DNA of 64,000 bases from an uncultured archaeon (GTDB lineage Archaea > Asgardarchaeota > Lokiarchaeia > Sigyniarchaeales > SOKP01), in assembly GCA_964583985.1 (NCBI GenBank), contig CAZOYD010000002.1, positions 1 through 64,000 of the forward strand. Reading direction: 5' to 3'. The translations under genes were made by a program, and so were the position numbers. The notes under the pieces are model-generated. The model was not told where the DNA came from, searched no databases, and saw only the letters and a program-made list of their open reading frames with translations. Of this stretch, positions 20,867 through 25,163 are shown piece by piece. How positions within the stretch are numbered: the stretch's first letter is position 1; every line of letters begins with the position of its first letter.

Positions 20867-22066
20867 TTAAATTTTTTTATTCTGTTCCAATATTTCCAGA
20901 TTACGATCTAGGTCAAACATGACTGAAACTCTCCCACTACCTATTGGACAGACTTGACCGACTATAACGTTTTCAGGAATTCCAAGTAAGCGTTCTTCTT
21001 CACCATAAAGCCCCGCATCAAGTAATTGATTTACAGTCACTTCGAATGCAGCCCTAGCAAAAACGCTGGATTTTGATCCCGATATACCATGTCTTCCAAT
21101 TGATTGAATTGCGCCATCCACTGTCATTAAATCAGATAAAATAAGTAAATGCCTAAGGTCTACATCCAATCCTTGTTGTTCAAGTACTTTTCTAGCTTCC
21201 TTAATAATCAATCCGCGAGCAGCTTCAATGCCATATAGTTTTTCAATTTCATGAATGTGATTTGAAACAGTTCTTGAAGCATCTACGCCTTCAATTTGCA
21301 CTACGCTTGGTAGATTCGTACCTTCAGTTTTAATGATCCATTCCTTATTATCATCCGTAGGGGTAATGAGTCCTCTTTTTATTCCTCTAATTCCTTTGAC
21401 GACTTTCTTGAGAATTTTTTCTCTTAATTTTTGAAGGCTTTGCAAATCTTCTATTCCAGGATCTATGATTATTGAATTACCTTCCCGTACGATCGTACCT
21501 TTTTTCTTATATCGCTTTAGAATTTCCGGAATTTTATCAATTTCAATGCTCTTTTTCTCGCAAATATCCGGTATGAGATGGATTACAATTTTCCAATCAA
21601 TGAAATCAAGATCCACATCAGAAGCAATTTGTTCAATTCGGATTTGTTCAATACGATTATGAACTTCAATTGCTTTAGCTTCACTCTCGTTGTAGGGCTT
21701 TTCCAAGTATATCTCCATCATGGGAGTTGATGGAAAACGGCGGGCATCAACAATTTCGATAAGTCTGGGAAGACCTTGAGTTACTGAAAATTCTTCTACT
21801 CCTGCATAGTGAAAGGTTCGGAGCGTCATTTGGGTACCTGGTTCTCCGATTGATTGGGCTGCAACGGTACCAACAGGTTCAGAGGTTTCTACGCCTGCAT
21901 TATTAAAGTTGATATAAATCTTATTCAGCAAGTATTCCAATTGTTCTTCTTCTAATTCCTCATTTAGAAGCTTATTTCTTATTTTATCGATTAGATCTTG
22001 CGGAATATCGTCTTCAATTAAATGAATTAATTTTTCTTCTAAATATTTTTTTGTTATTTTTACCAT
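20867..22066 (-). CDS. rpo1C: RNA polymerase subunit Rpo1C (A'')
   Basis: [48 protein letters not shown]. Confidence 0.98.
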
Positions 22067-22074
22067 TAAATCAC

Positions 22075-25024
22075 CTATATACTATATCTCTCTTTCTTCC
22101 AATCTAGATATCCTTTGGTTAATTTACCTCTCCATTCAGCATTTTTACCTGTTTCTTCTTCATAATTTTTTCTCATTGCATCTTCATCGGGGACGGAGTC
22201 CTTTGTTTTGACTTCCTTCTCTATTTTCTTAGGTTTCTCAACGGTTTTCTTAGGGCTTTGTCTTTTCGGTTGAGCGCTTGATTTTAGTTCATCACGGATT
22301 TCATTAATATCTAGCGCTTTAGCCTTGAGCAATAATACATCAAGATTAACCGCATCGCTATGATCGGTATGCATAGGATCAATTCCATCATCACCATAGT
22401 AAAATTGAATTATGTTCTTATCAGAGTTTCTTACGGTGTGATCGTTCTCTACCACCATATCTTGCAATGCGTTTACAAGTCTTCTCTGCATATATCCAGA
22501 AGTGCTTGTTCTTACTGCAGTATCTACTAAGCCCTCACGACCACCCATCGCGTGAAAAAAGAATTCTTCGGGATTGAGCCCATTTCTATAAGAAGACTCG
22601 ACAAATCCCCTCGATCTTGGAGTAAGGTCATTTATTCTAAAGTGTGGTAGTGTTCTTTGACTGTATCCTCTGTTAATTCTTTCGCCTCTAATAGCTTGTT
22701 GTCCAACAACCGCAGACATCTGTCCTAAGTTTAATATATTTCCTCTTGCTCCAGATTTGGTCATAATAACAGAATGAGCTTCATCACCAATAAAATCAGC
22801 GGCAATTTCTTCGGCTTGTTTACGCGCTTCTGCTAATAATTGTCGAATTCGCAATTCTAAAGTTTCTTTTAAAGATCGTCCAGGAGCACGTTTCAAAATG
22901 GTCGTATCTTCTTCATAAAATGCGTTAATTAACTTATCAGCTTCTTCATCCGCGCCTTTCAATACTTTTTGTATTGCTTCATACGCATGACCATGAACAT
23001 AAACTTCATCTAACCCAATTGTCATTCCATTTTGTCTGATTACATATAATAGCATTTTAGTTGCATTATCTAAGAATTCTCTTCCTCGAGCATTTCCATG
23101 ATCTTTTATAATTCTTTGTAGAATGCTATTAGATTGCATTGGACCAAAAGAATTCTCATCTATTGTCCCTGTAACTAATTCACCGTTTTTTATAACGACG
23201 TAAGCATCATATTTACAATTTTCTTTCTCGCAGACGTCGCATTTTTTACAGAATTTGGATTTAACTTTAATATTTAAATCATCTGGAAAGAGTGAACTAA
23301 AAATTTGCTTGCCAGAATATAAGTTCTCAGGATCAGTCTGAGCAGGTACTAGGTTTTCTAGCTTAAAATCGGGATTTGAATCAAATACGCCCCCCATATA
23401 AAGCAAGTTTAAGGTATCTTTTTTATTATAAAGGGAGTTCAAACTAGTAAATTGAAAAACTGATGAAATAAAATCTTGAATCCCCCCTAAAATTGGTCCA
23501 CCGAATCGAGGAGATAGAATATGTTCTTGAACTTTAAGTAATAATTCTGCTTCCGTTCGTGCTTCCTCGCTTTGCGGAACATGAAGGTTCATCTCATCCC
23601 CATCAAAGTCAGCATTATATGGCGGACATACAGTAAGATTAAGTCTAAATGTTCTTCCATCCATAATTCTAACTTCATGAGCCATGATAGACATTCTATG
23701 AAGAGAAGGTTGCCGATTAAATAGAACTAAATCACCATCACTGAGATGGCGTTCTACTGTAAATCCAGGAGCTAATGTGTCAGCGATAATTTTACGATTC
23801 TTCACGTATCTGAGATCGATTCTTCTTCTGTCGTTTCTGATAATATAATTTGCACCAGGATGTCTAAAAGGTCCATTGATGACCATCTGCTTCATTTCTT
23901 CAATGTTCCAATCGTTAACGTTCGTAGGGATTGTTAAAATTTTAGCGATTTCAATAGGAACGCCCACTTCATTAATGCTAATATAAGGATTAGGTGATAT
24001 GACACTTCTTGCTGAAAAATCTACTCGCTTTCCACTTAAATTACTCCTGAATCTTCCTTCTTTTCCCTTTAATCTCTGAGTCAACGTTCTTAAAGCTCTA
24101 CCAGATCTATGGCGAGCAGGAGGAATTCCTGAAACTTGATTGTCAAAATAAGTGGTTATGTGATATTGTAATAATTCCCACAAGTCCTCTACGATTAAAT
24201 GCGGCGCTCCAGCGTCTATATTTTCTCTTAATCTCTGATTGATACGAATTACATCAACTAGTTTATGGGTTAAATCATCTTCTGATCGTATCCCACTGTC
24301 TAAAGTGATACTCGGTCGTGCACAAACAGGAGGGATCGGTAGAACTGTAAAAATGACCCATTCTAAACGCGCATTTTCAGGAGAAATGCCAAGAATTCTC
24401 AAATCATTGTCAGTCATTTTTTTCAAGCGCTCTAAGATCTCTATTGGGGTTAGTCTTCGAGATCCTTTACTCTCTTCTTCTTCATAATAGGTTGTGGGTT
24501 TTTCAATAATGATCTTCTTCTTTTTTGCTCCACAGTAAGGACACACTTTACTTTTTCTTGCCCTCTTGAAGACTATTTTTGAAGCATCCTCATCCCCCTC
24601 AAAAAAAATTGTTCTATGTTGTTGCTGTTCTGAATGGAACTTTTCCTTTTCTTCCTCTGTAAGCATCAATCGAGAACATTCGGGGCAAATCGATCTTAAC
24701 ACTTTCAGCACTTTTTTTGAGTATCCAACATGAATAACTGGTCGGGCCAATTCGATTTAGACGTTTTGAACGAAGAGTTCAGAAACAATGTCCAAAATGA
24801 CCCATACAATTACTAACCAGATTTCCACATGTTTGACATCGCTGTCCCGGCTCAATAGTGCCTAATCTTTGGTCCATTAATCCACTTGGAATTGGAAGCC
24901 CGTCTTCATCATAAGTATCCGCAGTAATAATTCGAGCGGCACTCATCTTACGAATTTCATCCGGAGATAAAAGACCAAACTTAATCTTATCAATTAACTT
25001 GGTACGTGAATATGTATAACTCAT
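22075..25024 (-). CDS. rpo1N: RNA polymerase subunit Rpo1N (A'), interrupted: join(25024..24788, 24756..22075), 972 aa if spliced
   Basis: Segment 1 (79 codons) MSYTYS...[10 protein letters not shown]...[17 protein letters not shown]; segment 2 [11 protein letters not shown]...NRQPSLH...[11 protein letters not shown]...TSGYMQRR. The two parts are in different frames, separated by 31 nt. Confidence 0.95.
24757..24787 (-). other. Candidate 31-nt bulge-helix-bulge (relaxed) intron in rpo1N
   Basis: mRNA GGAC-AU^U-GUUU-C-UGAAC-UCUUC-GUUCA-AAAC-GUCU-AA^A; removal restores GHFGH-IELARPV exactly. Confidence 0.8.
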
Positions 25025-25163
25025 ATTATAATAACATCCTCTAATTTTTGAATAAAATGAATGATCGTTATAGAATAAGTGAACAAATACTGCACTGTAA
25101 GAAAGAGAAGTAAGCAAATATTAAAAATTTTACTATTTCACCATCATTCATTATTATTTCCTC

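Follow-up and report, generated by a model that had tools for sequence, protein, structure and literature searches.

A predicted bulge-helix-bulge intron in the RNA polymerase gene rpo1N of a Lokiarchaeial archaeon

The interrupted rpo1N gene

We analyzed a 64,000-nucleotide (nt) stretch of DNA, called the window here, from an uncultured archaeon of the Sigyniarchaeales (Lokiarchaeia). This is contig C2 of the bin that we label G000 (3.8 Mb in 138 contigs, with completeness rated at 100% and contamination at 5.25%). On its minus strand, the gene for Rpo1N, the largest subunit of RNA polymerase (RNAP), is interrupted by 31 nt, and this insert is the subject of our report. Exon 1 (24788..25024, minus) runs from the ATG at 25024-25022 to a CAT at 24790-24788 and comprises 79 codons, with GHFGH at the C-terminal end. 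It encodes a zinc motif, Cys-x2-Cys-x6-Cys-x2-His, and is colinear with the uninterrupted orthologues of 28 relatives. The insert itself, UGUUUCUGAACUCUUCGUUCAAAACGUCUAA (24757..24787, minus), shifts the reading frame and carries an in-frame TGA at 24781-24779. Exon 2 (22075..24756, minus) has 893 codons, from IELARPV to the stop at 22075. If the insert is read through, GHFGH is followed by CF and the TGA, giving an 81-amino-acid (aa) product, and gene callers divide rpo1N here into open reading frames (ORFs) of 81 and 863 aa. The Pfam domain RNA_pol_Rpb1_1 is on record for a product identical to the 81-aa stub, and Rpb1_1 to Rpb1_5 are on record for a gene identical to exon 2.

An earlier reading of this stretch, made from the sequence only, had proposed that an intron of the bulge-helix-bulge (BHB) or bulge-helix-loop (BHL) type lies here. 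The minus-strand sequence that it quoted for 24757-24787 matched ours exactly on re-reading. We tabulated the joined products of 7 by 7 cut registers. Register (0,0) alone yielded GHFGHIELARPV, and the neighboring registers of equal length gave Gln, Phe, Cys, or a stop, which reproduces the sequence-only reading's claim of a single frame-restoring register. Removal of the insert restores a functional ORF, in that GHFGHIELARPV matches the 28 uninterrupted orthologues. The predicted spliced product is 972 aa long.

We found that the insert recurs. In a search of a protein collection, the identical 81-aa stub (...GHFGHCF) was encoded on 21 contigs; the 10 places listed among them were 10 different JGI/ENA metagenome samples. 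Identical contigs occur, for example, in the JGI samples 3300031552, 3300031692, and 3300062536. The insert was present at the same spot in 8/8 of the listed places with readable DNA, in four sequence variants. Variant A, that of the window, differs from A' in its loop (UCUUC versus UCCUC). Variant B has the loop UUUUC and many silent exon differences, and variant C has one stem base and one loop base altered. An assembly error had been an early concern, and recurrence in independent assemblies from 10 samples removes it. We also looked for a second rpo1N in the whole G000 bin, since an intact gene elsewhere in the genome would have spoken against an intron; none was found, and the gene is single copy. 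Nor were there further copies of the insert in G000 within five mismatches. A 16-nt identity, TTCAAAACGTCTAAAT, which covers the intron's 3' end together with two bases of the exon, occurred at C102:4180-4195 in AT-rich intergenic DNA and was treated as chance (expectation value 0.06, no hairpin).

Lineages A and B both carry the insert and are well diverged from each other, differing at 125/1497 exon positions with three amino-acid changes. Over 499 codons the synonymous divergence (dS) was 0.51 and the nonsynonymous divergence (dN) was 0.005, with a ratio (omega) of 0.009; over 695 codons omega was 0.023. With dS of about 0.5 and dN/dS of about 0.01, rpo1N must therefore be in use. The intron showed one difference between A and B, compared with 11.4 expected at the synonymous rate (P about 1e-5). 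This comparison indicates that the rpo1N gene and its insert are both under selection.

RNA structure and covariation of the insert

In the window RNA, the two exon-intron boundaries lie on either side of a 4-bp central helix, H. The 5' strand of H is GGAC (24790..24793, minus), made up of the Gly codon and the first His-codon base of exon 1. It pairs with GUCU (24759..24762, minus), which comprises intron nucleotides 26 to 29, so that 24790-24793 face 24762-24759. The 5' strand is followed by the bulge AU^U (24787..24789, minus; the caret marks the predicted cut), in which the cut would separate the second nucleotide, 24788, from 24787. Next comes the intron hairpin h' (24763..24786, minus), built from GUUU (24786-24783), a bulged C (24782), UGAAC (24781-24777), the loop UCUUC (24776-24772), GUUCA (24771-24767), and AAAC (24766-24763); RNAalifold predicts the same helices independently. 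The 3' strand of H leads into the bulge AA^AUC (24754..24758, minus), where the second nucleotide, 24757, is again the last one before the predicted cut and 24756 the first one after it. This bulge is 5 nt long in the consensus fold and 3 nt long when only AAA is counted. Beyond it, the Glu codon GAA of exon 2 (24751..24753, minus) pairs with the Phe codon UUU of exon 1 (24796-24794) as an outer helix, h, which is present in the constrained fold of the window RNA. Thus, the two predicted cuts lie on opposite strands of the 4-bp central helix (GGAC/GUCU), each 3' of its own strand and after the second bulge nucleotide (AU^U and AA^A), which is the rule for cuts in the cbf5 intron (PMC2738675).

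The geometry given by the sequence-only reading (GGAC/GUCU, AU^U with AA^A, and GUUU/AAAC with UGAAC/GUUCA) is therefore present as stated. Its outer exon helix, GGGUCA/UGGCCC, did not hold up; it is unconserved, and two of its pairs break in 5-6/19 variants. The 86-nt region has a folding energy of -25.1 kcal/mol (z = -3.98). At fixed boundaries, four of four central pairs together with an inner helix of at least 4 bp arise by chance with a probability of 2.5e-4, as estimated from shuffled inserts and random genomic 31-mers. The 5' bulge has 3 nt and is followed by the 9-bp h', and the 3' site is flanked by an exon helix of merely 3 bp. The strict hBHBh' form, with both bulges of 3 nt and helices on either side, is thus not present; the rpo1N motif is h-B(5)-H-B(3)-h', of the relaxed HBh'/BHL class. 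By the rule of a preprint on Asgard tRNA introns, four central pairs plus a flanking helix count as "canonical," and truly relaxed motifs arise by chance at two thirds of boundaries (10.64898/2026.10.13.758758). Because relaxed motifs often arise by chance, we placed the weight on covariation and not on the fold.

The sequence-only reading had suggested a check for same-site rpo1N inserts with covarying stems, and we found 19 distinct variants. We aligned them with 20-nt flanks (alignment A2) and scored the previously proposed structure on this alignment. Paired cells made up 93.6% in the 19 variants, compared with 81% in column shuffles and 29-48% when the partners were slid by one to three columns. 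Ten pairs, with 48 cells, had changes on both sides, and the covariation score was reached by 0/500 shuffles. The 4-bp central helix was paired in 19/19 variants. In the third pair of this helix, the third base of the Gly codon pairs with the intron as A-U in 13 variants, G-U in 3, G-C in 2, and U-G in 1, and a synonymous GGA/GGG/GGU change in the exon is compensated inside the intron. This pair is always kept; therefore, silent exon change is matched by intron change. All nine pairs of h' showed changes on both sides, so the flanking helix is also supported by evolution, and the 5' bulge was a 3-nt A-Y^N in all variants. G-U pairs were frequent (18/19 at the first pair of H, for example), and hence the structure is specific to the sense RNA strand.

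RNAalifold, run on the alignment without structure input, returned the same central helix H, 3-nt 5' bulge, and h' hairpin. It added a 3-bp exon helix UUY/GAR, formed by the Phe and Glu codons and stacked on H, which leaves the 5-nt 3' bulge AA^AUH. The UUY/GAR pairs (13-67, 14-66, and 15-65) form in 19/19 variants, with one-sided variation. The intron lengths were 29, 30, 31, and 40 nt, which covers every reading phase, and all the inserts bring stops or a frame shift. The exon-2 codons directly after them are nevertheless conserved at the amino-acid level.

Splicing enzymes, proposed mechanism, and rival explanations

The G000 genome has two tRNA_int_endo genes, on contigs C4 and C3. The first protein, of 207 aa, has the catalytic chain of Aeropyrum pernix (3p1z_B) as its best match (E 1e-36), and its best matches as a group are the catalytic chains of the A. 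pernix, Sulfolobus tokodaii, and Pyrobaculum heterotetramers. This EndA alpha subunit keeps the active-site Tyr/His/Lys, and a Lys-Pro-Arg in it aligns with K44-P-R46 of the Crenarchaea-specific loop. In the second protein, of 205 aa, the Tyr is replaced by Phe and the His is missing, which is what a structural beta subunit would show. The alpha gene is at L031:1456-2076 (minus) and the beta gene at L032:1426-2040 (minus). RtcB is also encoded in G000. The Crenarchaea-specific loop and its Lys44 confer cleavage of BHL and off-position introns (PMC3241643), and an (alpha-beta)2 EndA with this loop has been reported for Asgard archaea (PMC5829648). By sequence comparison, the genome therefore encodes a crenarchaeal-type alpha/beta EndA with the broad-specificity loop, plus RtcB; that is, an endonuclease for relaxed motifs and an RNA ligase.

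ARAGORN, run on the whole of G000, returned 22 tRNA genes, 13 of them intron-bearing, despite the 100% complete rating. Because only 22 tRNAs were found, the ARAGORN output cannot serve to count tRNA introns for comparison. Introns at off positions, or several in one gene, probably conceal many tRNA genes, as described in Asgard archaea (10.64898/2026.10.13.758758).

We consider it very likely that the 31 nt at 24787-24757 are a BHB-type intron in the rpo1N pre-mRNA that is spliced by EndA and RtcB, and the rpo1N mRNA is very probably cut and rejoined by tRNA-splicing enzymes. In this scenario, the transcript would fold with the exon GGAC paired to the intron GUCU; the 5' side would then have the 3-nt bulge AU^U, and the 3' side AA^AUC. 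The bulges would lie above the 9-bp intron hairpin and beside the short exon helix UUU/GAA. The heterotetrameric (alpha-beta)2 endonuclease would cut after the second nucleotide of each bulge, RtcB would join GGACAU to AUCGAA, and the intron would probably be circularized. The ribosome would then make the 972-aa subunit instead of the 81-aa stub. We infer cleavage, ligation, and the identity of the acting enzyme. A real DNA insert, a single-copy gene under selection, a structure that covaries at the frame-restoring cuts, and the encoded enzymes are demonstrated. With this recurrence, single copy, purifying selection, covariation, and EndA plus RtcB, the core proposal of the sequence-only reading is supported.

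Several points weigh against this interpretation. The case rests on comparative evidence at the DNA level. The minimum free energy (MFE) structure of the window (-25.1 kcal/mol) uses a competing UUUGG/UCGAA pairing, and the BHB conformer, with the central helix and both bulges enforced, has -23.8 kcal/mol, 1.3 above the MFE; the ensemble probability of the central pairs of the window is just 0.40-0.49. The 3' cut sits in a 5-nt bulge or loop and not in a canonical 3-nt bulge, the central helix opens with a G-U pair, and the outer exon helix has no covariation support, because both of its strands are codons. Because archaeal ribosomes can start on nascent RNA, with transcription and translation coupled, fast removal of an intron that lies 237 nt into the ORF is needed if truncated peptides are not to be made. 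A scan of G000 for BHB geometry combined with ORF joining, of the kind suggested earlier for finding BHB/BHL frameshifts, gave 1371 matches against about 1360 in shifted-cut controls. We regard this absence of an excess as uninformative rather than negative, because the background of about 1,400 matches, from ordinary gene junctions, swamps the signal and would hide a few dozen true cases.

We weighed four other explanations. An artefact of assembly or sequencing, or a disabling insertion in a decaying pseudogene caught in the consensus of a metagenome-assembled genome (MAG), retains practically no probability. In its favor, k-mers of 31 nt, the length of the insert, are in common use, contamination of the bin is 5.25%, and the insert is absent from the 28 relatives that were read first, three of which have 98-99% aa identity over the first 400 exon-2 residues. 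However, the insert was assembled independently in 10 samples, with different assemblers and with loop variants, and inserts with compensatory changes occupy the same site in five genera. The genome has no other rpo1N copy, and omega is about 0.01 at a dS of 0.5 between insert-bearing lineages. Because the insert is recurrent and the gene is single copy and under purifying selection, we exclude both forms of this explanation. Also rejected was a group I or group II self-splicing intron, since the insert is just 29-40 nt with a single hairpin and a ribozyme core needs hundreds of nucleotides.

A split gene is very improbable. Here translation would stop in the insert and restart at TTG 24750 or a later ATG, and an 81-aa zinc-ribbon piece would assemble with a piece of about 890 aa. 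Archaeal RNAP subunits tolerate splits, with A'/A'' and B'/B'' as precedents; in the window a TTG lies 6 nt after the insert, and gene callers annotate two ORFs. However, the equivalent of this TTG is CTG, CTA, TTA, or CTC elsewhere, none of which is a start codon, and no start codon near the junction is conserved across the variants. The codons for IELARPV... right after the insert are conserved, with only synonymous change, and the insert sequence shows no evident motif of the Shine-Dalgarno kind. All three phases are represented among the insert lengths, and the conserved RNA structure includes exon bases, which a restart would not need. Translational bypass, in which ribosomes would hop over the 31 nt with the hairpin and a nearby stop as signals, is even less probable, and we put its chance as minute. 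The stop two codons past the take-off region and the stable hairpin in the gap give it a superficial likeness to phage T4 gene 60, a short, stop-containing hairpin gap within an essential ORF. Gene 60, however, needs matched take-off and landing codons and acts on the ribosome. The rpo1N gap has no such matched codons, as neither CAU nor GGA is repeated at its 3' end, and the variable gaps of 29-40 nt instead keep the helix between the exon and the 3' end of the gap, along with 3-nt bulges, which is EndA geometry. A genuine RNA-level intron removed by other machinery, such as another structure-specific RNase with a ligase, is very unlikely, but less so than the other three rivals. The present evidence does not identify the enzyme directly, and the 3' site lies in a relaxed 5-nt bulge. 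Against this, the frame-required cuts fit the EndA rule of cutting between the second and third nucleotides in 19/19 variants (PMC2738675), and the loop of the alpha subunit permits relaxed motifs (PMC3241643).

Among known systems, the closest to the proposed EndA/RtcB-spliced intron is that of the cbf5 pre-mRNA in Desulfurococcales and Sulfolobales (Watanabe 2002; Yoshinari 2006; Yokobori 2009, PMC2738675). Both are short introns (from 16 nt in cbf5) inside a conserved coding motif with a relaxed BHB, and the predicted cuts separate the second bulge nucleotide from the third. In both cases the EndA of the host is hetero-oligomeric, and the patchy distribution implies gain and loss among close relatives. 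However, cbf5 is the gene of an RNA-modification enzyme in Thermoproteota, whereas rpo1N encodes a catalytic RNAP subunit in Asgard archaea (Promethearchaeota). In cbf5, splicing was shown by cDNA and in vitro cleavage, whereas the rpo1N case is supported by comparison, and in relatives the first 81 codons of rpo1N contain additional intron sites. The cbf5 intron lies at the codon of the catalytic Asp of its gene, and the present host gene is rpo1N by its Pfam Rpb1 domains, so we rejected homology between the two; they are analogous. The non-canonical tRNA introns of Asgard archaea (nomenclature of Marck and Grosjean 2003) have the same motif class, with many gains on terminal branches and an alpha/beta EndA in most genomes (10.64898/2026.10.13.758758). 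They differ in that the exon half of the rpo1N motif also encodes Gly-His and Ile-Glu, and in that the mRNA intron needs removal before or despite translation. In HVO_1309 of Haloferax volcanii, an mRNA BHB is cut by the splicing endonuclease, as proposed for rpo1N, and the intron is freed as a circle (PMC7714728), but it lies in an untranslated leader, interrupts no reading frame, and has a homodimeric EndA in its host. The splicing of HAC1/XBP1 by IRE1 and RtcB in eukaryotes alters an mRNA frame by non-spliceosomal cuts and RtcB-type ligation, as rpo1N splicing would. IRE1, however, recognizes two 7-nt stem-loops and not a BHB, and HAC1/XBP1 is a regulated stress switch, whereas rpo1N shows no sign of regulation.

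In the papers that could be searched, the cbf5 intron is the sole confirmed intron in an archaeal coding sequence (PMC2738675, PMC7714728), with others just "predicted" (PMC2738675), and a BHB intron in a 5' untranslated region is known from Haloferax mRNA (PMC7714728). In the searchable literature we found no report of such an intron in an RNA polymerase gene or in Asgard mRNAs. Our comparison gives good support to a real intron and a known BHB mechanism in a new gene, that for a catalytic RNAP subunit of an Asgard archaeon. The comparative proof is unusually clean, with 19 covarying variants and a silent codon change that is compensated within the intron. Gene callers at present split such intron-bearing genes, and what looks like a frameshift in an Asgard MAG should not be written off as an error or a pseudogene. 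The rpo1N intron also offers a short, defined substrate and a named enzyme pair for biochemical testing in the lineage nearest to eukaryotes.

Distribution, evolution, and related inserts

The first 28 relatives with a readable junction had the uninterrupted GHFGHIELARPV and an intact exon 1. We then searched 153 genomes of the order for the flanking codons separated by a gap of 20-50 nt. The resulting count is a lower bound, as only sites with Met-Gly ahead of the motif and gaps no longer than 50 nt could match. Same-site inserts of 30-40 nt were present in 10/153 genomes, all of one family (f1, with roughly 134 genomes) and from five genera: g1 (G000 and G142), g16, g21 (three genomes), g22 (three), and g23. 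The pattern search found no such insert in the other 143. A protein-collection search with the 81-aa stub added more same-site inserts, of 29-31 nt, on MAG and metagenome contigs, including one from an NCBI record named Promethearchaeota archaeon (a Lokiarchaeia-type Asgard). The intron is therefore not a peculiarity of one genome but a patchy, family-wide element.

Three other stubs were examined and rejected. P0029 (L091) and P0015 (L092) have single-base indels or degraded sequence on error-prone contigs and are not introns, and P0006, which is out of frame after GHFGHI, most probably reflects an ordinary frameshift. When genome and metagenome contigs were scanned for the window intron with exact and gapped patterns, only one contig, already known, was retrieved; three other matches had no hairpin and were taken as chance.

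A tree was built from 660 nt of exon 2, with a biased sample. Some clades were cleanly insert-bearing, one of them with eight members that all carry the insert. The well-supported subclade of the window was mixed, with the insert in G000/A' and B and without it in G006, G001, and G022. At least five state changes are needed on this tree, a number that is subject to the bias of the sample. Variant C was nearly identical to the intron-less G006 over the exon stretch common to both, and insert presence or absence differs even between near-identical rpo1N alleles. The intron is thus old enough to be shared across genera, yet it is gained or lost precisely on short time scales. Precise loss is more likely than gain on such scales.

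The sequence-only reading had suggested that the intron ties transcription capacity to the tRNA-splicing machinery. This is speculation, as the pattern search yielded no insert in 143/153 genomes of the order and the 28 relatives read directly are uninterrupted. Because most related species are without the intron, a regulatory role is both unsupported and unlikely. The intron has the look of an old passenger, dispensable and tolerated, that some lineages of one Lokiarchaeial family have retained and most others have lost (or regained). It seems to persist where one half of the motif can be provided by the exon codons (GGN CAY / AUH GAR).

Two further rpo1N sites are occupied in relatives. In other lineages of the family, the Leu codon that follows TYDEDG, which is 37 codons upstream of GHFGH, is broken in phase 1 by a 31-nt hairpin insert (L073:1628-1658, L072:1564-1594, L078:862-892, L079:267-297, and L080:1328-1358). 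It has only three out of four pairs in its central helix. In a sister lineage (represented by stub P0005, with 106 member sequences), an insert of 85 nt that contains three internal hairpins splits the IEL Glu codon, 4 nt downstream of the site in the window (L069:1742-1826; also in L068, L070, and L071). In the register that restores HFGHIELARPV, the central pairs number 3/4, and the inner and outer helices have 4 and 5 bp, respectively. Different lineages of one Asgard family thus use three rpo1N sites, which lie after DEDG, after GHFGH, and within the IEL Glu codon. A bolder proposal, which we hold only tentatively and find rather doubtful, is that the first 81 rpo1N codons are a recurrent landing site for mobile BHB mini-introns, with insertion and precise deletion ongoing and mRNA splicing routine. 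Such mini-introns may move by a route such as reverse splicing and recombination, wherever exon codons supply half of the motif. If this were true, EndA/RtcB splicing of mRNA, including that of the transcription machinery, would be routine in the closest archaeal relatives of eukaryotes.

Inserts of a similar kind were seen in other coding genes of G000, and they add to the case for the rpo1N intron. The sole RNase HII gene is interrupted within its catalytic motif, between DEAGR and GP, by a 30-nt in-frame insert with a TAA (contig C1:127777-127806, equal to L066:2078-2107, minus). In the motif-restoring register it has a central helix UGGU/GUUG with 4/4 pairs, all wobble, and then a 9-bp hairpin. 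The N-terminal domain of uL11 is in four pieces in alternating frames, ..KALVTGG, KASGGPP, GPAVGPTG, and YIKDVVDT.., with AT-rich hairpins between the pieces (contig C27:35640-35960, equal to L067:1481-1801, minus). The last uL11 insert (C27:35788-35761, 28 nt) passed the strict test: its central pairs are complete (4/4), and its inner helix has 4 bp or more. We also made a motif-free census, in which 361 ORFs from 380 kb of three relatives were compared with G000 by tblastn; rpo1N alone had a genome-specific short insert, in a census that is blind to introns common to G000 and the relative. Because rpo1N alone stood out, private inserts are not dense in G000.

The surroundings of rpo1N differ from those in many archaea, in which rpoH and rpoB precede it. 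No rpoH-rpoB lies before rpo1N in its upstream region (window 25025-25163); the upstream neighbor is a divergent 218-aa ORF without Pfam matches, followed by a gene with a Succ_CoA_lig domain. Downstream, at a distance of 8 nt, is the ORF of rpo1C (20867..22066, minus), which encodes the 399-aa subunit A''; Pfam RNA_pol_Rpb1_5 is on record for the same gene in identical contigs. The two genes, rpo1N and rpo1C, probably share a transcript.

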